The notes under the pieces: generated by a model
What the model was told of the DNA's origin: nothing
Database searches by the model: none
What the model saw: the letters and a program-made list of their open reading frames with translations, nothing else
Part shown: positions 4,248-47,105 of the stretch, one piece after another
How positions within the stretch are numbered: position 1 is the first letter of the stretch
How the letters are laid out: every line of letters starts with the position of its first letter
DNA from: Haliotis cracherodii
Lineage: Eukaryota
Reading direction: 5' to 3'
Assembly: GCF_022045235.1 (NCBI RefSeq)
Contig: NW_027266286.1
Span: 46,500,001-46,564,000 of the forward strand
DNA length: 64,000 nt
Position numbers and translations under genes: made by a program

Positions 4248-7200
4248 TAATAATATCATCAACAATTACAGCGATGTCGCTATTTAGCTTGCTTTAATAC
4301 CGCTTCGTGTTCTAACTTTTATACTGGCAGATACAATACCTTGCAGTCATAATACGAAACAGTATCATAGTTGATGCCACTTGCATTGTTTGGCACAGGC
4401 AAACATGAATTGTATTAAGTCCTGATAAAAAATGAACATATACTACCTTTAAAAGATGACGTAACCAAAGTAGGGGAAATCACCCACCCACCCACCCACC
4501 CACTCACCCAAAATACAAAAAACAACAAAAAAAACAACAACAACACACACACACATTCTCGGTTTTGACACGTTCTGAACACGTTCGCATTTAATTAAAT
4601 CTTTTTGTTTCTAAAACAGAAATAACTAAACCCATTTCTGCAAACAATACTATCAAAATACACTTACTTTTAATACATTGATATTTCAAAACAGAGAACG
4701 TTCGATTTACGCCTCGCCAGGGAGCAGAATACACACACTCTGTCTGGGTAGAGCATCTGTCGAAGATGGGGGCCAGCTCTTCGTTGCTGAACCTGTGATA
4801 TCCATGTTCTGTCAAGCCTTCCGGATTCAGACTACAATTAGTGACACCTCCTCCACACTCTGTATTGTCAGTGTAGTAGGCGTCGCAGATGGAGATCGTT
4901 TTTTGGGTGTTGCTGCAGCTGAGGAAGTGCCGAGTACAGGAGAAGCCAGAAACACCATAGCAAGCCTTACTGGTCTGTACTGTAGACACTGCATTAATGA
5001 AGTAGTATGGTATATATAGTTACAGCAGTTATCAGTTTAGACCAGCATTCTCAACATGAATGAATCATATGTGTACGTCGAATTTCATAAACTAGCAGAC
5101 ATGCTATGAGGAATGATATTTATTTTAACCGCGTTGGCTAAGATTGTATTTACAAGTTTCATCTTAGAGGTCAAATGTATTAACTAAAATTGAAACGTTC
5201 TGATACACCGATGTATCCCAATATTAAACTCAATAGAAAGATTCTGTATCGATGCTATCGTTTCGCAAATATTGACAGAAGCGGATGACCTCGCCTAGGT
5301 GAACACTTCCAAGCTGACTGTTGTTCATTTCCCGATGAACGTCAGTATGTCACGTAATTAAGTTATCAATCGCGCGGAGACATACAGAACTACTCTAGGG
5401 GAATTCCTCAATGTCTAAAAATAACATTAAAATATATTAGGGAAAAAACTGAGAGCGACATCAATTTAGGCTATGAATGATGCAGGCTTTGAAGTCAGAC
5501 AGATAATGTATGTGTCGGGTAGCCGAAATGAAGCGTCCATTCGAAGCTATAACAGAGAATGCTCAACTTACCAAGAGAAATCCCCGAGCCTCAGTAAATC
5601 CAACCGCGATCCCCGTAATCAGCAGTCGTATTATGACTCAAACACACACCGAAAGTTCACAGAACGTTAGTATGTATCCATTTTCAGCATGAGTCGGGTA
5701 TAGATTTCTTTCAAATTCCAACGCTAACTTTACTGGGTGCAACTCGTGTTTCATTTTCTGCTGTTTGTAAAACCAAGGGATGTCACTCCAAATGCAATGT
5801 TTGGGACGGATGACGTCACGACGTCACGACTCTCCGCGGTGATATAGTTCAATTTCAATGATTAAAGTTTGATGTTTAATGGATTGTTTTGTTATGATTT
5901 ATGTATCTGTCAATATAAGGATTGAAGTTGTATTTGTTGACGTTCATCAGCTGATGAAGACAGTACCTCACGTGAGCAAATTTACCATGAAGCGTTCCCG
6001 CATCATGGAATTTGCTCACGTGAGACACTGTCTTCATCAGCCGATGAACGTCAACAAAAAGCTGGCACGCCGTGATTAACTGGAACACTGTTAAAAGCGG
6101 CGTTAAACCCAACTCACTCACTCACTCATAATAAATTTCTGATCAAAGCTGAGTCCATTGTATGACTAGATCATGTATTTATGAATCACTGTGGGCATCA
6201 AAAACAAGGCCACATCGGCCACATAACACTTTTCTTAACGGAGCTTTGTCACAGAAGCTAAGGAACAAATGTATTTAATATCCCGTTTGTCGCCTACTGT
6301 CACAGTGTTAACAGCGAAGCGGTACAACTAATTTTCCGATAAAAGCAGTTGTCCTGACCTGTATTAACCGAGTGAAGGGTGAAACATAAAACTGTGATAC
6401 ATTTCCAACATCTCAAACACGAAGACATTTGTTGGCATTCAACTTGCCATGGTGAGGTCGTCTACAAAGAAGTAAAATCATAGCACGAGACACGGGTGTC
6501 CTAATTCACATTCGCGTTCGAGACCGAGGTATATGTGAAAACAATCTTTTGTGCAAACACCCATATCTCCTTACTCTGCAGCTATATGCTATCTGTGGTT
6601 CAGCACTAAGTGTCATGTAAAGCGCATCAATGTAAAGTTTTACATGCCAGTTACGAATGCTCTGATCTGTTGTGCAGTTGAATAGGTCAAGGCTATATAA
6701 GATAAACATCATGGAGAGATGTAGAAAGGCTTTTAAATGACATTCACAAGAATAAGTGACGCATGAAATTGAAAGCAGGACGTTATTTCTGCTTTTACAA
6801 ATTCACCCCCTCAGACATAAATGAAGAATAAATGTGACTTTCGCATTCATATATTACACTACTCGTTCAAATGTTGTATCTTGTGACATTGACCTTCTTC
6901 TGACGCACCTATATCGTCACGTGGAACATTCCATAGTAGGGTATACTGAGTTATTATTTGCGTCTTCGTAAGTGTCTATGACAAAGATCTAAAAGCTTCA
7001 TCGTACACGTCAGCTGGATGCTGACATAATGCCCCTGTAGAGGACTTTAGCGTCACTCTTGTTTTTTCATATTCTGTGCTGATATTTGCAAAATACGCAT
7101 GTCACAACAAACAAATGGAATCTTGTAAAGGCAGTACGTCTTAGATGCGAAGTTGGGGGCCTCACTACAAAATTCTGTGCAGTCCTGGCCTTCGAGCTTT

Positions 7201-10200
7201 CGTGCGTAGTGTGTCAATGATATTAATATATATTTACTACTATTATTTACAGAATTGATCCTGCAGGTTATCACGGTTGTCACACAATATGTTGTGTGTG
7301 ACAAATGTAACGTACGTATTTGTTCAGTTTTATATTCCCTTTCGTTTCAAAGACACTTAATTCAATACCTTTTATGCACCGATATATATTCTGCAAAAAA
7401 CGAAATCCAAAAGTAGTAAAACCGTGAATATCTGAAACCGTGCTGCTGACATCAATACAAAATTAATGCGAAAATTGAATTGGTCATTTCTGCATGGACT
7501 GGGATTGACTTGCGCTGAAAGAATGAGGTACTGCACACGTGCAACATCACTTGTTGAGCAATAACAATTTTGGGTTTTCATTTGCATTCCATCACAATCA
7601 AACAGCAAGTGATAAGCGAAAACATGCCACGACTAACGGAAGCCAAACGCAACAACTCCACCGGCGACTGCAAACAGGAGAATCATCTTCAGCTGAACCG
7701 TTATCAGACACAGGGGACAAAACTTCCCCGATCCTGTCGAACACGTATCACTTCTAGAGTACAGGAAAGATTCATACGACTGCGGCAACACTAGGATTGC
7801 GTAGGAAATCAACCCAGACAGTGAGGAACCGTTTTCGCGCTGAAGGTATTTGCGCCAGACGAACAGTTCGAGGTGTCATATCGCCGGGCGCGACGTCAAT
7901 GGTGTCACGGCCACAGAGTAAATGTGATGGACACAAGTTTAGATTTATGCTTCTCCTTGCGAATAGTCGGCGTCGTGTTAACTGGCGTCGGGGGGAACGT
8001 TATGCACGTAACTGCATACAGGAAGTGGACGGATTTGGTGGTGTTATTGGGAAACCACACTTGTATAACAAACTCGGTGCAAGTTCTGGCGGTTTGACGG
8101 TTCTTCGGCCACACGTCCTTCCCATTATGCATTACCCATTAGAGATCTGATTCATACATGTATATACTGAACAGCATTGAAAACGCACAAGAAATAAATC
8201 TTGAAATATTAAAAAAACAGCTTGAGCAATGACCGATTTTGATTAGAAAAGACATAGACGGATTATTAGGAAAGACGATAAAGGAAACAGGAATACCACA
8301 CAGTAATTACAATTACGTCATCAGTGTAAGGAAGACACAACGCATTAAAATGAAGAGTCAATATCTGGTATGTCCGCCATTGACAGCAACACAGGCCATG
8401 CAATGTCTTCTCATAAGTCTGCGAATAGCGTTCTGGGACATTCCACTCTTGACGTAGTGTATCTTCAAGTTCTCTCAGGTTCTGTACTTGCGGACGACGT
8501 GAGAGGCGTTGACCCAGGTAATCCCACAGATGTTCAATTGGCGATAGATCGGGTGACAGGGCTAGCCATGGAAGCAGAGGCACATTATTGTTCGCTAGGT
8601 ACTGTGTTGAAACACGTGCTGTGTGCGCTCTTGCATTATCTTGCTGGAAGGTGTGCATATCCTGGTGCTGATGAAAGAATGGGATGACGTGATTTGTCAA
8701 TATGTTATTCCTGTAGTAAAGGGCATTACCTCTTCAACGACAAACATGGAGCTCTGTTCGATGGTTATGACTGATGCCGCCCCACACCATGACACTCCCT
8801 CCCCCAAATCGATCTGTCTGTACAACACAGTCATTGTGGTAACGTTCTCCACGTCGACGCCACACTCGCAGTCGACCGTCAGCATTCCGTAAATAAAAAC
8901 GGGACTCATCAGAGAACAGCACACCATGCCACTGCCGCAATCTCCAATGACGATGCCTTTTGGCCCAACGCAGACGTTCATTTCGATGTCGATCAGTGAG
9001 TATGGGTCCAACATATGGACGTCGAGCACGTAGCCCTGCTGAGCGGAGACGTCGACGTACGGTGTCAGCACTGATCAATTACGTCGGCATTGTACGGTTG
9101 CTGCAGTCCTGGTAGCCGGAAGTGTACGATCACGAAGATGCCGACGAACAATATGGCGATCCTGACGTGGTGTAGTTACACGACGTTGACCCGGACATGG
9201 TCGATCTCTGGTGGTTCTTGTCTGCTGGTATCAGCTCAGTAGCCTGAGGACTGTTGAATGATGGAATTGAAACCGTTGTGCAACGACTCTACTTGACGTA
9301 CCAACTTGAAGCATGCCCAAGGCACGTTCACGTTCCTCTACTGTTAATCTTGGCATTTTTTTGTGTCAGTACCCTTTACGTCTGCAGCAACCAGTGATGT
9401 GGCTTTTAAAAGTGTGTGTGGCTTTTTATAGCCCTATTATGCATGCTTCCCCATGTAACAAAAAACGTTTTCCATGATGTGCACGCAATTTGTTGCGTTT
9501 TGGCGATTTCGCTCACAAAACAAAATTAGGAATGTGTTTTGACGAGCTGTTCTTCTTCATGCTTCGTTCAGAACGTCGTATATTACTCATTCACTTATAT
9601 ATTTTCATATGATTTAAAACCGGATAAAAATACATCCATTTTCATGGTGGTGCGTTTTCAATGCTGTTCAGTAGGTGAATATGTTGAATGTTTCCAAAAT
9701 TGGTTAAGTCAGTGCTGGGTGTGATTGGAAGAAATCAGAAATTGAAAAAGAGGAAACATTTCGTTTGGGTGGGTTACCGGCTTGTGACAGACATTTTATG
9801 TTTTGTCACCATTTTTAGTAAATGCTACCAAATTAGGGATATGTCTCGAAGTCAAAAATTACCACCACCAGACTAATCGACCTGGGTCAAGTAAATAAAC
9901 GTCACAAACCTCATTTCCACAATGTTGCATCTCCCACTATAATCAGAGTCGATTGTACTTTTCCAGGTGTATCATAAGCATGTGTTCGTCATTGCTATAC
10001 TCCCATATTAAGCTGTCACGATATTTGCAATACCGCTAGTTCCCTTTCAGACGGAATAATTAATCTCAAAATATATTTTTTAACAGCCATTAGATTTCGA
10101 ATTCCATCAGTATCTGAAATGTCTCTTTTGTATATTCTTACACAGTGTACATACATAAATTACACATACTAACCAAGCACAATAAATACTGTTTATATAA

Positions 10201-11602
10201 TACAAGGAATATGTATATCAGCATCAGTCAGCCTTTATTAACCGGTTTGTATCGAACTTTAACAGTTTATTTGTCCTCTATGTCAGCAAGATTACTTCCA
10301 TTAATACTATTACTGCTAAATGTTATGCAGTCAGTATAACGAAATTCGGACAACTATTTCCAGATGACGTTTTGTTGATGTTGGATAATAAATACACCAT
10401 CTTATTTAATAGTCATAGTACAATTCAGTGTAACTACCGCACTATCACTGCTCCTGTTGAGATATCATACTTTGTTTAACACCATGAACATTATACAGCT
10501 ACAAACATAACCATTATAATTTGAAAAGCCAAAGTATTTAATTGTAGGGGCGGGGGTGTAACCTACTGGTTAAAAAGTTCGCTCGTGAAGGCCCAAGGTC
10601 GATTCCCCATATGGGTACAGTGTGGTGCGTCCCTCGCCATGATATTGCATGAATATAACAAAGAGTGGCGTACAGCCACACTCACTCATTTATATACTGT
10701 AACTACGATATGTCTGTTAGTGTTAGTGCAACATGTCTGGACCGGAAAGTTGCAGCATCACATGCGCCAATCCGCTTTTTGATAACTGATAAACGGGACG
10801 ACCGTGAGTGACAGACAAGCATTTGTATGACGTACCAGGATGTTATGAGATAATAGCTCAAAACCGATGTGGCTGCGTGCTCAGTTAACCAGGTCACTGA
10901 TACCAATGACTACTGATTTCTGCACAATCACAAGAGAAACGACATTTCGCTGGGGTTTTTTTTTGTATGTGGTAGTGTCAAGAGTTTTGCTCTAAACGCT
11001 TCTATCTCCTCTGACTGGAATTCCATAATGCCATATATCGTCATGAAAAGACGATTGACGTGTTTACATCCATACACAGTCAGGGAAGTAAGTACCAATG
11101 TCACAACCAGGAAAATGTATAATGAATAGGAGTATGTATAAAACAGATGAGTCTGGAAACCTTTACCAGTAATAGGTTTTAAATACCAAAATGTTTACAT
11201 TTCTCTCAAAGAAAGACATATAACGGATACTAAACGGTTGACGTCCAACATGTGATGAAAATCCTCATTGTGACGATATACCAGATATCCCGTAATAATA
11301 GCGCGCGACGACATGATATAAAATGAGATTTCATATGAGATCAACAATGTGACTCACCATTAAGACATCATGTACATAACTACATTTTCAAACACCCCCA
11401 AGTAAGAAATCAACACAATAGCCAGCTGGTCTCTTACCACCTCACTTATTATCGTATTGAAGCAACTCATTTCCACTAGCTTTCTGTAAGAGGTCACTGT
11501 AAAGATGTCCCAGTAATTAGAATCCATTAAAACCTCACCTGCATGAGTCGCTTGAAGCATGTAGAACACACAGGCGATCGCAATGTGACTCCAGTAGTTC
11601 AT
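934..11602 (-). CDS. Gene A: type-I membrane receptor with signal peptide, divergent SUEL/Gal_Lectin-like domain, S/T stalk, TM and Tyr-rich cytoplasmic tail (~367 aa, spliced)
   Basis: Phase-compatible GT-AG exons: 11602-11539 (MNYWSHIAIACVFYMLQATHA, phase 1); 4988(or 4979)-4668 (VQTSKAC...LSC..TISICDAYY..C..C..RCSTQTEC..SVLKYQCIK); 3976-3932; 2501-2393 (TM GAIIGGVVVSVLAASVATFVLV-RLIRK); 1498-934 (tail with 11 Tyr). The sum of 1104 nt is in frame. The domain name is inferred from Cys spacing and the terminal V.Y.C. Confidence 0.8.
2795..3015 (-). mobile_element. Adjacent fragments of two SINE-like families
   Basis: ttttagcaatattccagcaatatcac...gaaccc recurs at 17719-17819, 42188-42325, 44035-44110. 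caaccaagtcagcgagcctgaccaccc recurs at 41455-41662 and, inverted, at 56755-56900 and 61618-61765. Confidence 0.65.
3206..3312. mobile_element. ~107 bp MITE, PIF/Harbinger-type
   Basis: TIRs GGCCCACTTGCACAAA...TTTGTGCAAGTGGGCC extend into cttagcgctaag; flanked by the 3-bp direct repeat CTG (3203-3205, 3313-3315). Confidence 0.7.
5449..5670 (+). mobile_element. Crypton-like tyrosine recombinase (DUF3504-type) C-terminal remnant
   Basis: LRATSI*AMNDAGFEVRQIMYVSGSRNEASIRSYNR matches the H.LRAT...IM..SGH....S...Y motif. In-frame stop and the catalytic His is replaced. Confidence 0.65.
5933..6058. repeat. 126 bp near-perfect hairpin
   Basis: tttgttgacgttcatcagctgatgaagacagt...actgtcttcatcagccgatgaacgtcaacaaa; arms about 55 bp. 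Confidence 0.85.
7386..8140 (+). mobile_element. Degraded Tc1-like transposon (5' part)
   Basis: MPRLTEAKRNN at 7624; TQTVRNRFRAEGICARR; RRRVNWRRGERYARNCIQEVDGFGG; many frameshifts. Confidence 0.75.
8165..9673 (-). mobile_element. Tc1 (DD34E) transposon, full length but pseudogenised
   Basis: 24-bp TIRs tactgaacagcattgaaaacgcac (8165-8188, 9650-9673); ATG at 9356 (MPRLTVEERERALGML); FSDESRF and QQDNARAH-(34)-PIEHLW; in-frame stop and frameshifts. Confidence 0.92.
10550..10690 (+). mobile_element. Short tRNA-derived SINE with (ACTC)n tail
   Basis: ggggcggggg..tggttaaa..gttcgctcg..ggtcgattcccc head; same family as 17719-17819 and 42188-42325. Confidence 0.6.
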
Positions 11603-12489
11603 GGTCGCAGTGGGAGTATTTCACTCTCCCTCTTCTAAGGTAGGGAGTTGTAAAAGGCGAAGGAAAGTCACAGTACCGCGCGTTTGCTGTATATTTCTGC
11701 CCACTTCAAACTGGGTGTGCATAGCAATGACACTACGTAATTATATAATTCCACACAGGGAACGAGCGCGTCTTTTCAGTAAAGCTCTTTTAGAAAGTAG
11801 CCCAGAAGTCGGAAACAACGCACTTCGCTTTGCACAGTGCCGTCCTTTAGGACCTTGGGTTCGATATAAAAATACCCCATGACAATAACCCTTTGATTGT
11901 AAGCAGAATACATGTGTTCGTGAGTTTCCCCAAAGAAGTAAACATCTAAGGCTTACATCACTTTGGGCTTCGTTCCATGTTAAACTCGCAAGTCGACACA
12001 TAACCAAAATACTAATGTAATGTTCAAAGCCGCATGAAAAACCTCTCACCCTTTCAACTATCCATATACATATTCATATGATTGTTAGACACAGCATAGA
12101 CATGCCCCTGATCTCACGTTCTGTGGTTTTAATGTTAACTTGCACAAAACTTTAGATAGTAGTATTATCCTTTATCTGAACAGGGTCAAGACAAAACACC
12201 TGAACCTTAACATTCGGGGCGTTTAGCTCAATCGTTCCCACAGACCCAGACTATTAATGAATCATGAATATGAAGGGACATCTAATAATTCTCCGAGGGA
12301 ATATTTCAGTTTTAAATTGTCAGCTTTACAGAGAAATACAGCAAGTAAAAGACGTTTACGACCCCTGAGAAACCCACCAGCACGTACACATAATGCTGTG
12401 AGAACAGCTATTATAATAAGGGAGAATCGGGGATACCAAACCATGATGAGCGAAATCACGATCGAGTTGAGTAACTCATAACATACAAA

Positions 12490-13983
12490 TATACTCACAC
12501 GCAAAAGAAACGCAAGTGGTTTTAAGCAAATAGGTAACAAACACGGAACCATAAATTGATACGAGATTTAGCATGTAGTGACGCCTGATGGTGTTATCAA
12601 CATTCTTGGTTGCATTTTGGAATCCCCGAGTAAAAACGCAACATAAAAAACGAATCGCCAAAACGCACCATTTCAATGAATATGTGGGTATCATGCACCC
12701 ATTTCTCGCAAAATGTAGTGGGTATAAAACTGTTGCCGATTCTTGGACCTGCCTCTACTTTGTCAACAATGCCAACAAAACTCAAATTCAGAGAAACCAG
12801 GCTATCGGACGTTTGGAAGCTGGAGAGTCTGTTAACACAACCACAATTTACCGTCTCCTGCATCGATACAATGCCACACAGACCACAGATAACCTTCCTC
12901 GGGTCGGTCGTCCTAGGGTCACCACACCTCGACAAGATCGGCAGATTACCCGTCAACACCAGCGACATCCGTTCCTAACTGCAAGTGAAAGTGCCCGACA
13001 GAACATAGGAACACATAATCGACACATTAGCCGGGACACTGTGATCCGACGTCTCCGTTCCAACAACCTCAGATGTCGCCGACCAGCACGTCGTCCTGTT
13101 CTCCAACCACGGCATCGACATGCACGACTTCAGTGGGCACAGGGTCATCACAATTGGCGTCATGGTGAGTGGAAGCATGTCATCTGCACTGATGAAAGTA
13201 GCTTTTGTGACTCCCATGCAGACTGAAGAGTCAGAATTTAGCGGCGTCGAGGTGATCGTTTCGCTGACAGAAACGTTGTGGAAAGGGATCCATGGGGTGG
13301 ACCTAGCGTCATGATATGGGCAGGGATTGGACTTAATGCGAGACTTGGACCCATGTGCTTTCTGAATGTTGGTCAAGGTCGGGGACTCGGCGTCACTGCT
13401 CAGCGGTATATCGACCAAGTGATCAGACCCCACGTTGTTCAATTTTTTGCACATCAACAACACATTTTCCAGCAGGACAACGCTCGTCCCCATGTTGCCA
13501 GAGCTACCATGGCCTTTCTGCAACAACACAACATCCGTGTTCTACCGTGGCCATCCCTCAGCCCTGATCTGAACCCCATCGAACACTTGTGGGATGAGGT
13601 TCAAAGGCGTCTGCACCATGTGCACCCAGTCCCTACACCCGCATATGAACTACGCACAGCTGCTCTGGATGTGTGCAGGAGGATCCATAGGGCCTTCACA
13701 AATCGCATGATCCACTCAATGTACAGGAGATGTGTGGCAGTGATCAATGCTAACGGTGGTCACACCAGGTATTGTCTGACATTTTGGGTATTGACCCGAA
13801 ACTGAGTAAGCCCTTTTCATTTGAAAAAAAAAACAATTAGGTCATCTGCCTTTTAATCCATTAAACTGTCTTCAGTCATTTTTTTGTCAATCTTGCCAAT
13901 ATAGTATTTCTTGTCTTTACTGTTGAAAATAAATAACATGTATACTGCATACCCGACTTGCGTTTCTTTTGCGTGTGAGTATA
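12490..13983 (+). mobile_element. Tc1 (DD34E) transposon, pseudogenised, distinct subfamily
   Basis: TIRs tatactcacacgcaaaagaaacgcaagt at both ends including TA; ICTDESSF and QQDNARPH-(34)-PIEHLW; stop at 13224-13226. Confidence 0.92.
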
Positions 13984-14499
13984 GAATCGTGGCGCATTGG
14001 ACTACTGTGACCGTGCCCTATAATTCGGCTAAACATTGGCTTTATCACCTTTTTTGATAACGGAGCTTTGTCACAGGAGTGCAGGCACTATATATTCAAT
14101 ATCCCTTTGTCGTCTACTGACACATTTTGAGGGATTGGAGGGTGACGCATAATACTGTTTACTAATATATTTCCAACAGCTCATACACATAGTCATTGCG
14201 TTGACATTTGTTCCAACATGTTCAGGTCGCCTACATGCACATCCAACCGTAAAATGTTTTTCTCACTGGTACTTAAACACGGTTGTATTGTCCAATGTGC
14301 ATGCAAAATCGTACAGACACCGTTCTCTACCAGAAAATGACGATTTTAGTACTTTGAAAGAAGCCTTGCGAAGACTACAGACTGTCACGCAAAACATACG
14401 TTCGGACATCGATGTGTCTTCATTTAAATAAACTATGAATAGTGATCGAGAAATATAAAACGAGAAACCTCAGACAAACTACAAGGCGTCAGATGTTAT

Positions 14500-16075
14500 A
14501 AATTATTTCACGATATATCCTGAAATATGAGGCAATTATGTTCAAACTGGCCAAATATTGCGCACATGGAATTGCAGGACAATTAATCCCATAGCTAAAC
14601 CATGTGGAAACAGTAACAGCAAAGATCCTCTCAGTTATAGATGTTTGACAGTAGTATAAACACCATCGAAGATATGCTGAATTTATCAACCGTAGGTTGT
14701 TTAAATGCTTAGATATTGAAGATAGACTCGTAGATGAACAAAACTGATCTGATTCAGGAAAGGAAGATCATTCCTCGACCACATATGCAGCACCAAAACA
14801 GAAAGAATGCTTAGAAAACTTGCTAAGGTGGTTGATATCCGAAAGGCTTCTGACTTCGTGAATTCTATTGTTTAGGCTTATCGAGCATTGTATAAAAGGA
14901 AATACTAGACTAGTAGCTATAGATTGGAAACTATCAGATCCCATATGATAATGTGTCTTGTTCGCTGAAATGTAACCACATACAAGGGGGAATTTTACTC
15001 TTTTCACTATCCATTCTTCATAATGAGTTGGCTACGGAACTGAAGTAGACTACTTGTGGAAAACAAATTTGTAATGACAATGTGTCAGTCCTCTATTGTG
15101 CTGTTATCCACAGACACAGCAAGATTGCAATTGCAACGCGTACTGGATAGCTTCCGTACATTTACAAGACGACTAACGTTATTCATTTGAGACTGATGAA
15201 TACATCACAGTGTAAAGACTTTTAATGTCCCGTCATTGTTGATTTCAATGACAGTTAGGACGGTACCTTAGATTACGGATGAACCTGATCAAAACCGGTG
15301 GGTTTCCTGCTGCATAAGTATCATTTATGCAGAGATATGCACTGCAATGGTTTTACCAGTCTCTGTGACAGTCTTGCACAACGAGTTCTAAAGTTCTGTT
15401 CAGAAATATGGGGTGCCACCAGTTATCAGGAAATGTACACGTGCGCCATCCAACATCGTGCCTGTAGAGCTTTCAAGGACTTACATAGTGCTGTCGTTGG
15501 AGGATATATGGGTTAACTAGATCCCCGTTCTGAGGTTACATAGAGACAGTACGGCCTTGGTCAAACCGTTGCAGTAAATCATGTAGACTTATTGTTTAAG
15601 AAGTGTTTGCCGACTTTGGTATTACAGATATTTATATCATGGATCGAACCTAAGGATGGCGTTTAAATCAAATACCATGTGTCTCAGGGAAAAAGACCAG
15701 AAAGCTTAGTATAAAATAATCCAGCCAATGCCCAAAGTAAGAACATAGAAGCATTTTATGTTGTATTTCAAAACAGAACCATATTTATTGCGCTCCCATT
15801 ATATTTTAGGTACTTTAAGGTGTGGCTCTTTAAAACTAGAAATAGAAACAGGCACATATCGTATTCCACCAAATGAAAGATTTGAAAATTCTGTTTTATT
15901 AACTGTATTGAAAATAAAAAAAGTTTCTTCTAAAATGTCAACGAATTCAGCCTTTGTTCATGACAACCAAGATGTTAAAATGAAACTACAAAATAATGTT
16001 ATTTTAGAAAATTTTGGGGAATGTGGTAAAAAAAATATCTTGGAAGTGTACAAAACATGCATAATTTATCCGTAA
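14500..16075 (+). mobile_element. Degraded non-LTR retrotransposon (CR1/L2 group) ORF2
   Basis: LVDEQN..FRKGRS.LDHI (~14727-14785), VDIRKASDFVN (~14830), C-terminal LRCGSLKLEIETGTYRIPPNER (~15810-15880). Boundaries approximate. Confidence 0.7.
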
Positions 16076-16449
16076 ATTTACATGTGTAAGTGTCTCAGTG
16101 TCTCAATAAGACACTTCATAAGATGTACCTACTTGTTTTACTATGAATCTGTGACATGCTCATTCATTCATTCATTCATTCATTCGTTCAACTTTACGTA
16201 TTAACTTTAGGTACAGACCATTTGGAAAGTTGGAAAATATATGGGTTGACAGTAAAATCAATATGTTTCTCTCCTTCATTAAAAAAGCATTTATTGAAAA
16301 AGTGACAAGACAAAACTCGGTCATTCCAGTCCTTATTGAAAGTGTCAAGACAGGTCTATGCAGGTGTATATAACTGACAATGAGAGTCGAAAATGTTGGC
16401 AACACACCTACCCGAAATAATGATTGTATATATCATTCAAGTTAAAAGG

Positions 16450-16800
16450 TGAGGTGAAATGGGTTTTAACGTCGCGTCCAAGATTATTGCACTCATATAG
16501 CGACTTGCATGTACGTGTGTGTATTTGTTTGGCTGCTTGTACTAGTCCGGACTGATGCCGATTTAAAGTGCTAGCTCACGAGATACCATGCCGCAGTTTA
16601 ACATGAATACCCCACTCAGACACAGTATACTGACTCCAAGCCGACCAATCCTTGTTTTAGCCCATTAATGCCGAGCGCCCTACAGGGTAACAACAAGTAC
16701 CATCTTTTAACGTCTTTGGTATGACGCGGCCGGGAATCGTTCCCCGGACCTTCCGCTCTCCGGGCGGACGCTCTACCTCTAGACCACGGAGGCGGTCTCA
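16450..16800 (-). mobile_element. ~350 bp tRNA-derived SINE (most complete copy of a family)
   Basis: Pol III A/B-box-like head (ccgtggtctagaggtagagcg...gggaacgattccc) plus a shared core. Related copies at ~22051-22125(+), 27590-27780(-), 43150-43345(-), 45079-45250(+), 49560-49730(-), 50210-50630(-), 55760-56075(-), 60620-60937(-). Confidence 0.8.
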
Positions 16801-17659
16801 AGTTAATAGTCAGGACAACTTTTTGAGTCGCGGATAGCACATAGGTAAAATAGAATAAGTAGATGGTTGATATATGAACTAAGTTTTACGCCACAACCAG
16901 CAATATAAAATCCAGTAAACAGCGAAACTGAAAAAGACAAATCAGTTGTTTCCAGCAACGATCGACTCACCAAATACAAATCTGATTATCTGGTTATTTT
17001 CTCCCATATTAACACATACTTTTGATGAGTATTATTTGTCGTAAAGAGTCAATATAATGGGTGGTTTTGCTATATTCTAATGGCTGTGGGTATCTCTGTC
17101 ACAAAATATATCATATGCTCCATACAAATACAGTTTGAGATAACTGGATCAAGGGTTTATCTATGATGGTTATCACATTAACGTACACTTTGTTTTACCT
17201 CAAATCTGTATATCTTTCATTTGTACTTTTTGATAAGGCATATACAAACTATAATCAAAATAATAAAGTACATGAAAAGCTAAAACTCGTTATAACGTTT
17301 TAAATAAATGTCGACAATTCAAGTAAGATATTGTTTTATATGCTGTCCCTTCAACACACATACCGTAAAGAAAAGAGGGTTAAAGACATTGTTAAAAAGA
17401 CACAACCATCATAAATAGCTGAGCAATTTCAGAAAATCAGGGCCTTAGGGGGTCAAATTCGTATTTCCATCACAATACACTATTGGACAGAGTTAATTAT
17501 CAAATAGAAAAGACGCTACGGTGACAAATTGTGTTCTCAAAACGCATCAGCATGTCTCCTAAGGAAAGTTTTTATACAGTGTGATGTCCATAAGATTTCA
17601 AACTCATCACATACATTTAAAAACCTGGACCATACTGACTTAGTAAGATTAAGTCTTAC

Positions 17660-17717
17660 CTGCGTAAACCTCCCGAAGAATGCAATCCGAAATGACAATA
17701 AAACGCCAATAATTCAT
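17660..17717 (-). CDS. Leader exon L2 (signal-peptide-like, homologous to gene A exon 1)
   Basis: ATG AAT TAT TGG CGT...TAC GCA G|gtaag = MNYWRFIVISDCILREVYA; 58 nt, phase 1. Confidence 0.6.
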
Positions 17718-17718
17718 G

Positions 17719-17819
17719 AGTGAGTGAGTATGATATTACGTCGCTTTTAGCAATATTCCAGCAATATCACGGCGGGGACACCGGGCAATTGGCTTCACGC
17801 TAGGCTACCCCACCGCTCC
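17719..17819 (-). mobile_element. SINE inserted at the start of leader L2, with 13-bp TSD
   Basis: ccaataattcatg at 17706-17718 and at 17820-17832. Confidence 0.85.
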
Positions 17820-18056
17820 CCAATAATTCATGTTTGTAAGCAATCATTTTAGTCTTAGACGGTCTACAAGGAAGTAGCATATTTTGCCGTGGTATTTTAG
17901 CTGTAATATACATCCTTGGCAAACACTGTGGCCCCGTTGATTACACATGAGACGGGACGACCCACACTGAAGCGGATGGACAATACAGTGTAACTACAAA
18001 GCTCTGTTTACTTCATACGTTGCACACGTGGTATTATCATGCACAAAAATAGTTAT

Positions 18057-21016
18057 AACACGTCCCATTTTAATTCTGGAAACCCAAAAGTCAAGAAACT
18101 CTACGGTCTTTTCCCAGTCTCGGTCAAAGGTATTTACAAAAATAAGCATGCTGTTTTCACGGGAACATACTAAGGAAGAAAAAAAAAGTTTAAAAACTCA
18201 ATATTTACACCATATTTTCATTAACACAAAACTCATGTTTTTGTTTCGCAAATACTTAACTTGTATTCCTTCAAGTATCATGACACAAAATCTAACTCAT
18301 TTAAGTTAATTCAACGATTTTATAGCGATATTGAAATAGTTCGCCCATGGGCGAGAAAAAGGTTTGACCCATGGGCGAGAATATTTTCCATTACATAAAA
18401 CTTATGTGTTTGTTTCGCAAATATATTTTAATGCACTCTTTTACGTATCATGACACAAAATTTAACTCATTTTAACTTAATTTAACGATTTTAAAGCGAT
18501 ATTGAAATATTTCGCCCATGGGCGAGAAAAAGGCTTGGCCCATGGGCAGGCCCATTGGCGAGAATATGTTCCTTTACACAAAACTCATGTTTTTGTTTCG
18601 CAAATACATAGATGTATTCCTTCACGTATCATGACACAAAATTTAACTCATTTTAACTTAATTCAACGGTTTTAAAGCGATATTGAAATATTTCGCCCAT
18701 GGGCGAGAAAAAGGCTTGGCCAATGGGCGAGAATATGTTCCTTTACACAAAACTCATGTTTTTGTTTCGCAAATACATAGATGTATTCCATCAAGACATA
18801 TTTAATTCGGTTTTATGGTCCATGCGGTCTTACAATTGATTTTATTAGTCTATAAATCTTATGTCCAGTACATATTTTCACAAACAGGACTGTTACCTGA
18901 TATAAGGAAGGTAACATCCAGTTGAATTCCCAGTTGACGTATTTACTTTTTTTATCAAGGATTATCTCTGTGGCCAGTGGCGGACGTAATTCAAACTCCT
19001 TCCACACTGACACCGCATCAAATATATTTGTGTACCCATTACATAACTCTTACGGACAGGGTGTGGTGGTAGTTCACCGGACGACTCTGTGTATATTGGG
19101 CGGCTCCTTTGATATCTCCTCCAAACATACTTTTATTGAATGACCCATTAAACGATGATACACATCTCGTTGAATATATCAAGGCACTAATTCATTTTTC
19201 ATAAACTTTTTTTGTCTTTGTGCTTAATATATCCACATATCAACGAAAATATGTAATACATGTATCGACCAAAAAAAATATACATATACCTGCATAACTG
19301 TTTATTCGCGCGTGGTGTGGTGTGGTAGATCGTAATTGACTGAGAGCAGGTATTGTAGAATCACCTGTGAATAATGCCGACACTGTAATTAGATACAACG
19401 TACTAATGAGAATATGAGAATTATCATAAGAAGGCTGGTTTTTTTCTGAACTGTTACCATTTTCATACCAAAAGTGACAATGCATTTATAAGTTGTTTTA
19501 GTGTCACAATATTCACTCAATCGCCTGTAAACATCGCACCGCATATAATGAAATAATTATTTCGAGATTTAGTTAGAATGTGAGATATTCAGCTAGACGT
19601 TATGCAATGAAAGACGACTCGGGTTTCCCCCCATTAAAATACGCGCACGTGTACCTGTATATTGCATATCTATTGTCACTTAATTCCCCAATGTGATGTA
19701 CTAACGAGACATAAAATGGGAAGTGAAAAAGAAACAAACTAAACTTTAATTTGTTGAAAAATAATGCCAATAAATTGGTGTACACGCGCATGAATTTGTA
19801 TGATAAACTGTCAAAATGTTTTGAGAGATAAGGCCGGGTTCATTAAAGATCGTTGCAATATGTAAAAAAGGTGAAATTTGTAAAACTTCTGCAGGGGAAA
19901 CATCCAACCAAAGGCCTTTTTAAAATAGTAATGTAATGATACAAAGTGTGTTTCACATGATATAATATACTTTGTAAACAATTAGTTAATTCTTTAAAGG
20001 GACTGACGAAAACATGGTCCGAAATATTTTAATAACGCCAAAAATTAGTTGAATTAAGTTAAAATGAGTTGAATCATGTGTCATGCTTATAATCCCTTAA
20101 TGTACTTGCGAAACTAAAACTGTTGAGCAAAGGAAAATATGCTCGCCCATGGGCCAAACCATTTTCTCGCCCATGGGCGAAATATTTCAATATCACCATA
20201 AAATCGTTGAATTAAATCGTTGAAATGAGTTAAATTTTGTGTCATGATACTTGATGGAATACAATTTTAGTATTTGCGAAACAAAAACATGAGTTTTGTG
20301 TAAAGGAACATATTCTCGCCCATGGGCCAATCCTTTTTCTCGCCCATGGGCGAAATATTTCAATATCGCTTTAAAATCGTTGAATTAAGTTAAAATGAGT
20401 TAAATTTTGTGTCATGATACTTGATGGAATACAATTTTAGTATTTGCGAAACAAAAACATGAGTTTTGTGTAAAGGAACATATTCTCGCCCATGGGCCAA
20501 GCCTTCTTCTCGCCCATGGGCGAAATATTTCAATATCGCTTTAAAATCGTTGAATTAAGTTAAAATGAGTTAATTTTTTTGTCATGATACGTAAAGGAAT
20601 GCATTAAAATATATTTGCGAAACAAACACATAAGTTTTGTGTAAAGGAAAATATTCTCGCCCATTGGCCAAACCTTTTTTTCGCCCATGGGCGAACTATT
20701 TCAATATCGCTATAAAATCGTTGAATTAAGTTAAAATGAGTTAGATTTTGTGTCATGATACTTGAAGGAATACAAGTTAAGTATTTGCGAAAAAAAACAT
20801 GAGTTTTGTGTAAATGAAAATATTCTCGCCCATGGGCCTGCCCATGGGCGAGATGGTGTATATATATATTTATTTTTATTTTTTTTCCTTTTTTCTTCCT
20901 TAGTATGTTCCCATGAAAACAGCATGCTTATTTTTGTAAATACCTTTGACTGAGACTGGGAAAAGACCGTAGAGTTTCTTGACTTTTGGGTTTCCAGAAT
21001 TAAAATGGGACGTGTT
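18057..21016. mobile_element. Foldback-like non-autonomous DNA element with long modular TIRs
   Basis: Outer ~130 bp inverted termini (aacacgtcccattttaattctggaaacc... / ...gggacgtgtt), then ~170-bp tandem units (about 3 left, 4-5 right, inverted) carrying the palindrome TCGCCCATGGGCGA. TTAT direct repeat on both flanks (18053-18056, 21017-21020). Confidence 0.85.
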
Positions 21017-21504
21017 TTATCCTTTGAAAATGCAGTCGGATCACTTTAGCATACAACTGTTGGCGGGTAGGCACTGTTTGTCCTTGATGAGACACAAATA
21101 GCATTTATAACATTTACTGTTGAGTATCTTGCGACACTCTACCCGTGACTTTACTGGCTTGTGTACCGGGCCATAGAAAACGTGCTCAGGGTTTGGCGAG
21201 GTGTCCTCAGATAATGGCGAAGTTATTATATCACAGTAAAAGATTTGACTTTAAAGGGAGTCAAAACGCAGACCTACATACAAGAAGCTAAGTTATAAAA
21301 TAATTATCAACTTGAAAAGTGATGACACCATGTATCCATGGAACGTGTACATATGACATACCCTACTGTTAGCACAGTGTGCTAACTGAGGGGACGTGCC
21401 CTACACGTAATCATCAATAGCATAGATTTTCGATGTCCTTTCTGTTCATGATCACACTGAATCTCACTTGCTTATATCAAGTATCAGCGTGTAGTTATGC
21501 TTAC

Positions 21505-21562
21505 CTGTATGAACTGTATGCAGAATGTAGAACAAACTGGCTATTAAACTCCACAAGTCCAT
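21505..21562 (-). CDS. Leader exon L3 (signal peptide, homologous to gene A exon 1)
   Basis: ATG GAC TTG TGG AGT...CAT ACA G|gtaag = MDLWSLIASLFYILHTVHT; 58 nt, phase 1. Confidence 0.7.
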
Positions 21563-40328: not shown

Positions 40329-42548
40329 ATGTTAGCACATCGTGCAAGTGTGATCGCGGCATTGTTGGGAGCGTGGCTGTTACTCACCCCAGCAGTATCA
40401 GGTAACACAATAATTGTCCTGGTGCCGCAATCTAGTGTATGTGAATATCAACTCAAGTGTTTATCAAATATGATATCCGACAGTTATATTACTAATTACT
40501 GTAATACGATTGATATTATTAAAAGCATGCGTCGTGGGTCATGCGATTTGGGACATATCAAATGTTTTACAATGCGACAGTGGTATCAACTCGTTGCCAT
40601 TTGCATGGAATTTTATACTATTAATCATATAAATGAGATCTCACTCACTCACTCGTTATGTCTATTGTGCCTTGTTACAGGTGTGGGTTGTCCCAACGGC
40701 TATACCCAGTATGCGCAATCCTGCTACATGCACCACAATCAGAAGATGACCTTCATTAAAGCATCTGCAAGTTCACCATTGCTTCCCGTCAAGTTGATCA
40801 CGTTACCATTCCAGATGGGAATATGTCTTTGGTTTAACTGTGAAAGTCTGTGACAAACCATTCTATGACTGATCAGAGTCTAAATCTATGTGAAAGACGT
40901 TATCGCGAAATTCACGTACTGTTACTTTTTCATTTGGTGTTGCACTAAACCTTGACTGAAAATCGTATTAAATCAAAACAGTATGATTAAAGATGCTCAC
41001 AATATATACAACCGAATGAAGACTTATCCTACTTGCAGCCATGAGGCTTGCCATACCTCGTCTTTTGCCATGTGTCTTCATGATAGTTTATACTTCCAGG
41101 AATACTGCCGACAGCACCATGGGTACTTGACAGAGATTGAAACAGCAACGGAAAGTGCCTATGTGAAGGCATTCCTGAAGGGGAAGATTAGTAAGTGAAA
41201 CCAAAGCAGTAACTCCTTTGAATGCAGTTGTTGTAAGCGACCGCGTGAGCGTTCCGTGTTAGAACTCAGATTGCGTGTCGCTGTACGCCAACTGCAAGGG
41301 TCAGTGGTCACAGTATCAATCACTAGTTAGTCTACACGTATTATAATATTTTTTATATAATAATATTCGACATACTTTGCTTGGGAAGAATCTTCCCTTA
41401 ATCTTGATAACCGAACGGTTCACTTGTCATGGAATCATATGATGTCATCTTTTGTTTTGTTTGTTGTTTAACGCCGCAATATTCCAGCTATATGACGGCG
41501 GTCTGTAAATAATCCTGTTTGGACCAGACGATCCAGTCATTGACATCATGAGCATCGATGAACGCAATTGGGATCGATGACAGCATCAACCAAGTCAGCG
41601 AGGCTGACCACCCGGCAACATGGGTTGCTGAAGACCTATTCTACCCCGGATCTTCACGGGTCGATGTCATCTTTTAAATCCTTATGTTATGTAGAAAATG
41701 AAACTATCGAACGGCGTAAAACTACCCAATGCTAATTGAATTTACAATGTCGATAGTAATTTAATGATACGGTCATTACTGTCTATTTCCTAACTGTTAT
41801 ATCACTCACTGATGCATAATTTCTGCTTTAGTTGACGATGGTGTTTGGCTAGGCGCTAACGACATTCGGTTTGAAGGCTACTATGTATGGGACAAGTCGG
41901 AGAACCCACTGAACTACACAGATTGGTACCCTGGAGAACCCAACCAGAAGACTGTCGAGGAGGACTGCATGAGTAGCTGGAAGTTTGAAGGGTATCAGTG
42001 GGCAGATCACTACTGTGACCGCCCTGACCTCGAGCCATTTTGTGAGACAGAGTAAGTTGTTGGGAATTTAGGTAATACATACTGCGCGCAAAGAAGGGGA
42101 TGTGGGTTCAGATATGGTATAGTTCACATGGTATTACGTACATGTAGATGCAAATTACTAGTAAAGGAAGCTGGGTATGGGTTTACAGTGAGTGAGTGAG
42201 TGAGTATGGTTTATCACGGCGGGGGACACCAGCAATGGGGCTTCACACATTGTACCCATGTCGGGACTCAAACCCGGGTCTTCGGCGTGACGAGCGAACG
42301 CTTTAACCACTTGGCTACCCTACCCGGGTTATGGGCCACACAATGCTGGCTTGAATATGTGCTTGTATGGGATAAGACATACACAAATACTGCATACAAA
42401 TGAGTGTAATCATTATTCTTTATTGAACGCATAGGCAGCTTGAAACTGTTGTATGTAGAATGTAATGAACAATGATAAGTTAACATATCACAATTTTAAA
42501 TAAATGCTCTTTCCGCATCTCTGTTTCAGGGTAACGAAATGCAGCTAA
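40329..42548 (+). CDS. Gene E: secreted single-domain C-type lectin (perlucin-like), EPN/WAD motifs
   Basis: Exons 40329-40401, 40681-40766 (GC donor), 41100-41190, 41832-42051 (WLGAND..EGYYVW..WYPGEPN..EDC..WADHYC..FCE), 42530-42548, with AATAAA at the stop. Confidence 0.9.
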
Positions 42549-42948: not shown

Positions 42949-42960
42949 AGAGAGAGAGAG

Positions 42961-43013
<53 letters not shown>

Positions 43014-43020: not shown

Positions 43021-43541
43021 AGTGTGAGAGGGGGGGGGGAGAGCGTGTGTATGTGTTGCTGCTTGTACTAGTCTATAGTGTTCATTTGGACATAGATGGT
43101 TATGAATATACTCTTACCTTAATACACATATACCAGGCAGGCAGCTGAGCGACCATATGCCGCAGTGTAACATGACTCAGACACAGTATCCCGACTCCGA
43201 GAAGATCAGTTCTCGTTTTAGCTCCTTATTACCGAGCGCCAGGCAGGGTAACAATAAGTTACATTTTTAACGCACTTCTGGATGAAGCGTCTGGGGATCG
43301 AACCTACAACATTTCGCTCTCAGGGTAGGTGATCTATCCACAAAACCATGGATGCAGTATGATGTTTTTTTTACACTTTAGCAAAAGGAACAAAGCCAAA
43401 TTTGTGTGAGGTAGGAAAGTACATTTATACGAGGAACCGTACAAGGTATTCAGCCAAAATGTTTGGGAGAGAACTCTTGATGATGGTAGTCATTTCAGGT
43501 ATCGGTACATAGGAAAAGTCCAAGGTGAAGGTCAGCTACCA

Positions 43542-43755
43542 TCAATAATCCGTAGGCCCCCCGTTGGAATCGATAGCGGCCTGACATCTCCTTCCCATGG
43601 AAGAGACGAGTATGCGAAGCACATCCTGGGGAATGGTAGCCCACTCGGCCTGCAACACAAAAGCCAACTGTTGCAACGTCTGGGGTTGTGGTTGACGTCG
43701 TCGTAGCCGTCTATCCGATTCATCCCTCAGGTGCTCTATCGGGTTCAAATCAGAA
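43542..43755 (-). mobile_element. Tc1 transposase C-terminal fragment
   Basis: SDLNPIEHL..E..RRLRRRQPQPQTLQQL....EW..IPQ......SM.RRCQA.I...GG.T.Y. Confidence 0.85.
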
Positions 43756-44848
43756 CATAATAATGTTTTCAAGATCACATTAATGAGATTTGACATGCAC
43801 TTTACAGGGAATGGATATGAATGTAGGGCATTTGAGTAATGGCCTCTACGTGATGCTGGAAGAATACAATTCGTCCTCTATCAACAATCTAACTGTCACA
43901 ATTCATGGTCAATAATAGCAGAAGAATATATCTTCAGGGAAATTGACTAAAATAAGAAGATAAATTCCAATATAAATATTCCGATAAACTTAGCCTATTC
44001 AGATAAAATAAAATATATGCGAATGAATGAAGGAATATGGATTTACGCCGCTTTCAGCAACATGTCCGCAATATCAGGGCGGGGGACATCAGAAATGGGC
44101 TTCACACATTTTGTGGCAAACTAACAAACCATGCATGTATAAATGGTCGGCTCGGAGTCAATATACTGTGTCGACGTATGGTATCCATTTTTAACTGCGT
44201 CATGGCATATCATTCGGCTAGCACAATACGACTGACATGAGTCTGGACGATGGAAGCCGAACCCTCCAATAGATGTCTAGTGGATGATATACACCAGCTG
44301 ATACACTCTTGTTACTATACGATGGATTATATATATATATATATATATATACATGTTGACAGGCATGACACAAGACTAAACCTTGGTACGACAGACAAAT
44401 TGCATTAAAGAGAGTACTCAGAGGATCCATCTGCAGCGAATGGTTAGTGTTTAGTGCCAAACAAACCGCATATGAAGTAAATGCAATATCTAGTCGCCAT
44501 TCCAAACACCATTTTGTTTCTCATGTTGCGAAGCATTTTTTTATTTCTTTATGCAAGCGGAGGAGTAGAGGTTCAAGTTTCCAATCCAACATAACACCAT
44601 CTGTCATCTAGTATGATGTACATTCACTTTAACTACTTCAACTTACGATACTACTCACAGCTTACTCATACACGGATACTGTAACACTTAACCGTGATAC
44701 GTATGCTCGTATCATTAAATGAATCATGTGTGACAGTGTCTGATAATAGTCTAGGAAGGAAGACCCGTCTATTGTGTGTGCTGCTGTTATATAATGACGT
44801 TATGCGAAGCGATCCTGACTTATTGTCTTCACGAGCTACATGCATGTC

Positions 44849-47105
44849 ATGATGGACCGACAGGGACGTGTAGACTTCATCACATGCACCATGTTGATGG
44901 TCATGGCTTCCGTAAAAGGTACGTTGAATTCACACCATCATTGCCATATATGTGGAGATTAACAGACCTTTATCACAGCAACTGTTACGATACCTATGTT
45001 CCAATGGCAAGTTTTTCTCGATCGTGAAACTACCTGTAAATAACAATTACCAATGTGTTAGCATACGTATGTATTCAACCGCTTCAGCGGCCTAGTGGAT
45101 AGAGCATCTACCTGGAGAGTGGTAGGCCGGTTCGATCCCCTGGTCGCCTCATATCAGCATACGTAAAAAGACGGTACTTGTACTTGGAATTAAAGGGCTA
45201 AAATAAAGACTGGTTGGCTCTGAGTCAGTATACTGTATACTGTGTCTGAGCGGATATCCATTAAAAACAGTTTTTAGCAAAATTCCACCTTCATCATAGC
45301 GGGGGACACCAGGAATGCACTTCTTTCAGTTCACCCATGTGGAGAAAAGAAACCAAGACTCCTGAGCGTGGGGTAGGCCAGCGGTGTTTAAGGCAGGCAG
45401 GGTAGGCTATGGCGGCGTTTTGGGACAGGCGGGGAAATATATGGTGGTGTTTAGGACGGGCGGGGTATCAAATAGTGGTCTTCAGGGCAGGCAGATACAT
45501 CTTGCAGTTTTCGTCACACTGTTTGAAGCTTTCTGGCGCTCCCCGTGGTGTTGCTGACACATTGTTTAAAGCGGCATAAAAGCATACCCATTCACTATTG
45601 TAATTTTGATTTCAGCTACGAAGACTAGCCAGTCGTGCTTTACTCCAACGCCTACTCAAAATTGCTCCTATCATCATCATCTCACATGTGGAGACGGTGA
45701 AAAAGTTAGAATTGATTTTAACAGTACCTTTTTTGTTAAAAAGGCTGATGGATTAGAGTGTGCAACGATTACCTGTGGCTCCCCGTTCTACCCAAACTGT
45801 TGTGTATTTACAAAAGGAGATCACGACCTTCATGACTTCAACCCCACAGTTCGTGAGAACATCACAACTTATTGTTTGGATAAGACACAGTGCGTGTTTC
45901 TTGCTCCACACCAGCAAAACTTGTTTTTGTCTGTGGTTAGGTACGACTGTATTCGAGGTAAGTTGAATGAGTATATCTGAAGCCAAGATAAGGCTAGAGG
46001 TTTGGAGGTTAGCTGATCATGACATTCTCATACAAGGTAATGTGTAAGCGTATTTCTCAGTGAAACAATTCTGATTCTATCTGGAACGAAATACGGTAAC
46101 AATTGTATAACCGATATTGCATGTTCCATTGTTAATCAGATGTATTACGTCGACTGCCACTGTTTGCACTCAACTACTATCAACAGTTGGACAAACACAG
46201 GGATGTGAATATTAATTATTATTGTAATCCGTTAACATCGTGATACATAATAATGTTTTTTGTGTAGATGACCTTGCAACTACGGGACTTAAAGTTGGCG
46301 TTGGCCTCGCTGTCACAGTTGTCATCATCGCTGGAATTTTTGTTACCCTGTGCTATTTGAAAAGGTACTTTAAATTTTGTAATATCATCGTTCATTACGT
46401 GGTTTCAAACTTTAAGCCGCACTAATAGTATTCACTATCCATTGCCCATTACATACAACAGACCTTTTACCTTTGTCCAGAAACGTGATATTGCTAAAAG
46501 CGGCCCAAAACCATGCCATGCACTCTCTCATACACTACACACCACATTTGTAGTAGTCTGTAATTACGATAAAACATTGATCACTTAGATGAATTGAGAT
46601 ATCTATATTACAAAATGTCCATTTACATATCTTTGGGAGAATATTAAGCTACATGCAGCAAACACTGGCACAATCCTGAATGCGGCATAAAACAACACTC
46701 ACTAACTCATTAACTATGTTTTTCAGACAAAGAAAACAGTCACCACAGCAGAGTAGAAGAAGGTTGGACACTGGACTTGCACCACTCTACCATGAGGTGA
46801 TAGACGCTCGGTCATTCACGGAGCGGACAGGCAGTTATGAATATGCCACAGCGGAGGAGATACATGGAAGAGGACAGGATCCAAAACCAGTTATGGAAGG
46901 ATATGATCACTTAGGGGTCGTGGCCCGCGGTGTGTGGGAACATTATGACACTGCGACATCTGCTATGCAACAAGTTAGTCAGCTGTCGGAAGCCGATAGC
47001 CACAGGGGAGGAAGAATCATTTACAATCATCTGAGTCTCAAGCCTCAAAAGACAAAGGTCCACCACAACCATTATGATGTTGCTATGCAACAAACACACC
47101 AATGA
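44849..47105 (+). CDS. Gene B: paralog of gene A (SUEL-like ectodomain, TM, Tyr-motif tail; ~295 aa)
   Basis: Exons 44849-44918 (MMDRQGRVDFITCTMLMVMASVK, phase 1; start uncertain), 45616-45957, 46268-46364 (TM VGVGLAVTVVIIAGIFVTLCYL-KR), 46727-47105. Total 888 nt in frame; intron phases match gene A. Confidence 0.8.
45370..45495 (+). repeat. Degenerate G-rich ~31-bp minisatellite (about 4 units)
   Basis: Repeated gg..gttt..gg.caggc.ggg.a units. Confidence 0.55.

Follow-up and report, generated by a model that had tools for sequence, protein, structure and literature searches.

Two genes, here called A and B, were analysed in a 64,000-nucleotide stretch of the genome of the abalone Haliotis cracherodii (assembly GCF_022045235.1, contig NW_027266286.1, positions 46,500,001-46,564,000 of the forward strand; hereafter the window, in whose own positions features are given). 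The genes lie on opposite strands (A minus, B plus), and their ectodomains are predicted to combine the SUEL/rhamnose-binding lectin (RBL) fold with a lost sugar site. A tandem array that ends in A carries two interleaved types of cytoplasmic tail, and amino-acid change is concentrated in the ectodomain of B. On balance, these features favour the interpretation that A and B belong to a paired activating/inhibitory family of non-self receptors, probably with a protein ligand. The array, the two tail types and the signs of positive selection go beyond the original prediction, which had been made from the sequence alone and described two diverged receptors with a SUEL-like ectodomain.

Each ectodomain is encoded by a single phase 1-1 exon bounded by AG and GTAAG, located at 4668-4988 on the minus strand in A (321 nt) and at 45616-45957 on the plus strand in B (342 nt), as originally described. 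The proposed alignment of the two also held: BLASTP gave 33% over 57 amino acids (E 4e-7), and the local alignment score of 89 was reached by none of 2000 shuffles (30.6 ± 5.6). All eight core cysteines of A aligned with B, and the alignments confirmed a CC pair that is extra in B and missing from A. The strings YGR, DPC and KYL were found in neither domain; the tyrosine of YGR is retained in A-type domains (D-A-Y-Y-T). The tails are likewise homologous, the A-B tail score being reached by one of 2000 shuffles and the score of the B tail against that of protein P0004 by none of 2000. At least 12 paralogs that are much closer to A than B is are located just outside the window.

Spliced contigs define gene B as four exons encoding a single-pass receptor of 298 amino acids. 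A signal peptide (44840-44918; spliced contigs in runs X1, X2 and X5) is followed by the ectodomain, which has 10 cysteines including the CC pair and is without C4/C7 and the DPC loop, then by a transmembrane helix (46268-46364; spliced contigs and a match to P0006) and a 125-amino-acid tail (46727-47105) with seven tyrosines and one site, I-x-Y-N-H-L, of the immunoreceptor tyrosine-based inhibition motif (ITIM) consensus, which is conserved in 3 of 3 orthologues that have a tail. The translation is identical to P0006, an "uncharacterized protein" of H. cracherodii. All four exons were present on one intron-free contig of run X1, and B was also spliced in runs of two other organisms. The X runs have no record as RNA; the spliced contigs argue for RNA. 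In the B contig of run X2, the lectin and tail exons are 94 letters apart instead of 97, and this segment, the counterpart of 46268-46364, is not displayed as aligned; it is possibly an allele of the transmembrane exon or a splice variant.

Gene A was modelled as five minus-strand exons with an open frame of 369 amino acids and a single-pass receptor layout, a structure that we infer because no listed contig connects its exons. Exon 1 (6359-6428), which has an intact phase-1 GT donor, would encode the signal peptide (61% identical to that of H. asinina P0012, E 1.4e-7). The ectodomain exon has the eight core cysteines plus one extra and is without CC, C4/C7 and the DPC loop. A probable 15-amino-acid linker mini-exon (3932-3976) resembles the SDPFNVKCE mini-exon of the paralogs and P0012, and is followed by a transmembrane exon (2393-2501), with a run X4 contig over 2319-2500, and by a long (L) cytoplasmic tail of 187 amino acids (934-1498), parts of which, with the 3′ flank, are covered by contigs of runs X2-X4. 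This tail contains 11 tyrosines and repeated D-Y-D motifs. P0012, the sister of A in the ectodomain tree (98/78), has the same layout. Among the listed contigs, none joins A exons and none covers 6359-6428 or 11539-11602, which speaks neither way. A model that used the 11539-11602 exon and wrong linker boundaries ran into stops and was replaced by the present one. A Ser/Thr-rich stretch at 3647-3721 on the minus strand, outside the model, is a possible lost stalk exon in which a donor is present and a usable AG acceptor was not found.

An AlphaFold2 model of the A ectodomain, built from an alignment that excluded canonical SUELs, had a predicted local distance difference test (pLDDT) score of 77.6. 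Its Foldseek ranks 1-10 were all RBL or latrophilin lectin (Lec) chains (best E 2.7e-4), and VIA-align, whose top hits were again RBL or latrophilin Lec, gave a Z of 8.1 with a root mean square deviation of 3.0 over 85 aligned residues, against Z ≤4.7 for unrelated folds. For the B model (pLDDT 82.2), the first ten Foldseek ranks were likewise taken up entirely by RBL and latrophilin Lec chains. The top Atlas matches for A were PF02140 clusters (0.93; 202 of 256 features). Both ectodomains are thus predicted to keep the SUEL/RBL fold, no unrelated fold appearing on top; with a signal peptide, one lectin-fold exon, a transmembrane segment and a tail, A and B agree with the SUEL-like single-pass receptors first proposed. 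Pfam gave no direct PF02140 match for either domain and no relevant match for the two exons and 14 full-length relatives, all of which fall below the curated PF02140 cut-off; in the genome searched (G000), A and B are outside the 21 PF02140 matches.

In SUEL/RBL proteins the disulfides are C1-C3, C2-C8, C4-C7 and C5-C6, and the sugar contacts of CSL3 are Glu7, Tyr27, Asn74, Asp79, Gly83 and Lys86, according to the available part of PMC3269628. Alignments indicated that A retains only the Tyr27 equivalent and B none of the six: the loop bearing Asn74, Asp79 and Gly83 is deleted, and Glu7 and Lys86 are replaced. C4 and C7 are both missing from A and B, so the canonical four-disulfide set is incomplete. 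Across 61 distinct domains (65 before duplicates were removed), C4 and C7 occurred together in 30, were jointly missing from 30 and disagreed in one, and Cb and Cx were both present in 56 and both absent in four; p-values for such pairs are not independent, because the rows are related. Disulfide pairings were unreadable from the models, and covariation of CC, Ca and Cc was uninformative; the predicted pattern is Cb-Cx, C2-C8 and C5-C6, plus Ca-Cc in A. On these alignments, the rhamnose site appears to have been deleted rather than retuned, the DPC loop and the C4/C7 pair having gone together. The altered ligand specificity originally proposed understates the change, because the loop that binds sugar has been deleted together with its disulfide, leaving at most one of the six CSL3 contacts.

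A and B resemble SUEL/RBL proteins (PF02140; CSL3, SUL-I) in the predicted alpha/beta fold, the spacing of C2-C8 and C5-C6, an I-x-I-x-x-A-x-Y strand and a V-x-Y-x-C end. They differ in having no DPC loop, C4/C7 or equivalent of Glu7 or Lys86, in being undetected by Pfam, in an extra Cb/Cx pair, in the CC of B and in being membrane-bound with tyrosine tails. Judged by motifs and contacts, they would fall outside the rhamnose-binding lectins, though sharing the predicted fold. The contig that holds A, B and the array (C23) contains a graded series that runs from PF02140-positive domains to CC-insert forms, then to B, in which C4, C7 and the DPC loop are missing, and to the A type, which is without CC as well. 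SUEL-like single-exon domains are concentrated on C23 (18 of the 21 PF02140 matches and 20 of 20 L015-domain matches), at 0.19, 0.32, 1.08, 18.8-19.0, 19.98, 22.8, 32.4, 43.1, 46.9, 49.0 and 57.2 Mb.

In line with the original proposal, A and B could remain lectins that use a rebuilt site to bind another glycan (of bacterial, algal or host origin) and act in pattern-recognition signalling, but this is unlikely. The predicted SUEL fold, the Tyr27 equivalent kept by A-type domains, conserved aromatic and histidine residues (YYT, H-x-F) and the C-type lectin genes between and beside A and B would suit that role; the deleted contact loop, the replaced Lys86 and Glu7 and the loss of C4/C7 would not, and the strong amino-acid diversification described below would be easier to reconcile with a protein ligand than with a conserved glycan. 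Protein binding by the SUEL fold has a precedent in LAT-1 with TOL-1 (available part of 10.1101/2023.05.04.539414), and latrophilin-teneurin structures, a further precedent, were among the Foldseek matches of the A model.

A search of G000 with A returned 14 of 20 candidates with E <1e-30, 13 of them in C23:46.30-46.505 Mb and one at 21.39 Mb. The array thus comprises 13 paralogous lectin exons spread across ~200 kb of the minus strand, and substantiates the receptor family that had been foreseen. All 13 exons are open with eight invariant cysteines, and one neighbouring unit is P0005 of H. cracherodii. Each unit has one tail, either long (L, ~190 amino acids; eight units, one diverged) or short (S, ~60 amino acids; five units), and the two types are interleaved. 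A second exon (D2), the likeness of which to CUB is weak (Atlas 0.87), is intact in nine units and missing from A and B. The array also contains debris, namely two frameshifted L-tail remnants, one late-stop S tail and partial exon duplicates. Past the last unit, a further tyrosine-motif tail of B/L-like type was observed (G000:C23:46289718-46290011, minus strand), with no lectin exon detected.

The tails were scanned with consensus patterns for ITIMs and for immunoreceptor tyrosine-based activation motifs (ITAMs). The pattern YxxL/M-x8-YxxI, which has ITAM-like spacing, was present in all five S tails of the array (three YxxL, two YxxM) and in none of seven L tails; it was also present, with both tyrosines, in eight of 12 named S-type proteins. 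Four of seven L tails matched the ITIM consensus, as did B and its two orthologues. In addition, the first six tyrosine motifs of the L tails recur in the B tail in unchanged order. A tree was built from 33 ectodomains of four species; 11 of its rows were S-tailed and 16 of its 30 inner branches were open. On it, a single clade of S-tailed ectodomains was rejected (p-AU, by the approximately unbiased test, 5.7e-5), with at least four tail changes; L-tailed P0088 and S-tailed P0015 were sisters at 100/93. Tail type is therefore shuffled across ectodomain lineages, and the locus combines clustered genes, related ectodomains and two tail classes, as paired receptors do.

Amino-acid change is in excess in the B ectodomain relative to the rest of B. 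Between B and H. rufescens P0007, 20 of the 113 residues in the ectodomain are changed versus 14 of 184 elsewhere (p 0.014), and with H. asinina P0022 B shares 44% of its ectodomain residues and 64% of its tail residues. In run X5, 27 of 344 lectin-exon bases depart from B, versus 39 of 1188 in the transmembrane exon, tail and 3′ flank (p 7e-4). Nineteen of these 27 lectin-exon differences were listed, and all 19 are non-synonymous; with 21% of sites synonymous, the chance of this is 0.79^19, or ~0.01 (~0.02 without three differences next to an insertion). Across the 13 paralogs, site model M2a was preferred to M1a (likelihood ratio 21.2, p 2.5e-5), with 8.7% of sites at omega 3.5 and 41% at omega 0.1; three of the omega ~3.5 sites sit in loops beside Cb and Cc. 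A three-gene subfamily of H. rufescens (P0015 with an S tail, P0016 and P0088 with L tails) has no close match in G000, the best being 59%.

Several results weigh against a family of paired non-self receptors. The A ectodomain has no excess of change, identity to the orthologue P0012 being 56% in the ectodomain and 55% in the tail, and three of the 19 X5 differences adjoin an insertion. The mean ratio of non-synonymous to synonymous rates (dN/dS) that the 13 paralogs show in the lectin exon, 0.62 (0.45-0.81), does not exceed the 0.68 of the second domain and overlaps the 0.46/0.45 of the tails. The second domain also passes the site model (p 0.012), which was run with custom code and the result of which gene conversion can inflate. 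With regard to the tails, three of the 12 named S-type proteins lack ITAM-like spacing and a fourth has a cysteine in place of the second tyrosine, the motif scan found no ITIM or ITAM consensus in the A tail, ITIM-type matches arise easily in Ser/Asp/Tyr-rich tails, and tail types remain grouped on the tree (four changes versus 9.2 when shuffled). As for the fold, the Foldseek E-values of B are weak (0.014-0.08), the alignment behind the B model held three PF02140-like paralogs, and Atlas recognition of A is under its reliable bar (1676 < 2300).

Some of these features would also be seen in an array drifting under relaxed constraint, with tyrosine motifs and tail mixing as by-products of unequal crossing-over. 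Broken tail copies, partial exon duplicates, orphan first exons and a mean dN/dS of 0.6-0.7 point that way. Such drift is nevertheless highly improbable given that 13 of 13 lectin exons are open with their eight invariant cysteines, that 41% of sites have omega 0.1 and 9% omega 3.5, that B is spliced in runs of three organisms and that motif order is common to the A and B tails.

Latrophilin and EVA-1 are conserved low-copy genes with canonical motifs; they include OLF, GAIN and seven-transmembrane (7TM) regions, and EVA-1 has two lectin domains. Like latrophilin/ADGRL Lec and EVA-1/EVA1C, A and B would carry a SUEL-fold domain on a receptor, and latrophilin Lec chains were the top structural matches; unlike them, the A/B family is one-domain, tandem and fast-changing. 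Abalone gamete-recognition proteins are known for positive selection. A function in non-immune cell-cell recognition, whether between gametes, in self/non-self discrimination between cells or in neural or larval guidance of the EVA-1/latrophilin kind, would draw on that background, on the closest structures being latrophilin Lec domains, whose developmental binding partners are teneurin or TOL-1, and on the occurrence of A and B orthologues in several Haliotis species. We regard it as improbable, since birth-and-death turnover, broken tails and shuffled S/L tails are typical of immune clusters and not of conserved guidance receptors. Protein ligands have been demonstrated for the latrophilin Lec domain (available part of 10.1101/2023.05.04.539414).

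For the favoured paired-receptor family, we infer ligand, tissue and signalling, and the mechanism would be as follows. Variable N-terminal loops on the lectin scaffold may form a new binding face for a changing, probably protein, ligand, the clustering of which would lead to tyrosine phosphorylation. Short S tails (YxxL/M-x8-YxxI) would recruit a Syk-type kinase and activate the cell, and the long L and B tails, with repeated D-Y-D-x and ITIM-like sites, would recruit phosphatases or SH2 adaptors that dampen or tune the signal. An arms race with a parasite or pathogen may drive the turnover.

Vertebrate KIR, LILR and Siglec proteins are paired receptors with ITIM/ITAM tails and Ig-type ectodomains. 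Among invertebrates, Botryllus FcoR and Hydractinia Alr also have related ectodomains, alternative tyrosine-motif tails, clustering and motif swapping, and in Botryllus FcoRs ITIM and hemITAM are exchanged by splicing (available part of PMC12065747). The FcoR/Alr ectodomains are Ig-type; those of abalone A and B are a degenerate SUEL domain. The GRC and PTC2 clusters of Biomphalaria are similar in that diverged single-pass genes are arranged in tandem in a gastropod, with presence/absence of individual genes; they differ in that PTC2 genes are reported without a known domain and that a resistance link has been demonstrated for the Biomphalaria clusters (available part of PMC7494358).

When 1.84 billion representatives were searched with a profile, 51 matched; of these, 30 were looked up and 21 were named, leaving nine unnamed. 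The named matches came from four Haliotis species, Gigantopelta, Lottia, Patella, Mya and Potamilus, and all 33 matches of a second homologue search were from Haliotis. The lineage specificity claimed originally therefore applies to the CC-less A subtype, named examples of which are confined to Haliotis; it does not apply to the wider family, which, including forms without C4/C7, occurs in Gigantopelta, Lottia, Mya and Potamilus. Homologues were molluscan where named, and A and B, each with one lectin-fold exon, one transmembrane helix and a tail, show no 1:1 orthology to a known conserved receptor. Most names are "uncharacterized" or "hypothetical", as had been anticipated; three distant family members are labelled "SUEL-type lectin domain" in UniRef. 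No description of the family was found in the titles and abstract starts of the literature searched, the coverage of which stops short of subscription journals. In the available part of PMC13229213, on selection by withering syndrome, no lectin is listed, and the several uncharacterized LOC ids there could not be linked to A or B, and the available part of PMC9709981 contains no scaffold table placing C23.

Upstream of A (11539-28055, minus strand), five signal-peptide-like exons were found beyond that of A itself, four of them with intact phase-1 donors. The exon at 11539-11602 has an intact donor, that at 14126-14196 is broken by a frameshift with loss of its donor, and that at 17660-17717 has an intact donor, a short repeat insertion duplicating its start at 17831. 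The exon at 21505-21583 matches the first exon of H. rufescens isoform P0061 at 93% identity, and that at 27992-28055 is 73-77% identical to first exons of H. rufescens P0015, P0016 and P0088. No lectin exon was detected between them with the family hidden Markov model over C23:46.20-46.61 Mb, and blastn detected no gene remnants there. Their H. rufescens counterparts head lectin genes without a close match in G000. The four with intact donors could splice to A.

RefSeq isoforms assigned to one gene in each of three species hint at a combinatorial locus. In H. rubra (P0001-P0003, P0087), the same ectodomain is joined to an L or S tail; in H. asinina (P0009, P0057, P0069), different signal-plus-lectin cassettes are joined to one tail; and in H. 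rufescens (P0016, P0061), two first exons with orthologues upstream of A are joined to one lectin exon. This mixing may reflect real splicing or mis-joined models. It is a tentative and rather doubtful extension that the cluster is a combinatorial paired-receptor locus, in which alternative first exons and lectin cassettes would be joined to ITAM- or ITIM-type tails by recombination and alternative splicing, making it KIR/LILR-like and switched from sugar to protein ligands.

The window contains other features. C-type lectin genes or exons lie at 40329-42548 (plus), 37778-38032 (minus) and 49969-50034 (plus); they comprise a perlucin-like gene that is small and secreted, a Lectin_C exon (E 1.3e-10) and the beginning of a further one. 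At 31795-34378 (plus), Cys-rich exons with a weak ShK-domain-like match accompany a Thr/His-rich mucin-like exon. A tandem duplication of ~4.9 kb on the plus strand (about 54400-58800 and 59300-63700) carries in each copy an exon (57190-57553 and 62087-62434) weakly like the CUB-like second domain (E 0.001 to P0017), and no lectin exon was detected in the copies. Tc1/mariner-like transposase remnants lie at 8269-9400 (minus), 12582-13802 (plus) and 43410-43877, one of them between the first exon of A and the next orphan exon, and degenerate tandem repeats lie at 51393-52391, 18212-18795 and 20020-20838.

Receptor families in which the ectodomain fold is known and the signalling tail can also be read are few in molluscs, and the A/B family offers the two together. 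Immune-gene scans in abalone miss this family because Pfam does not detect it. One genome appears to show a lectin losing its sugar site stepwise, from the canonical form through the CC insert to the loss of C4/C7 and then of CC. If the paired-receptor interpretation is true, ITAM/ITIM logic would extend to a non-Ig scaffold in Lophotrochozoa, and abalone, the endangered black abalone among them, would have in this locus a candidate for disease resistance.

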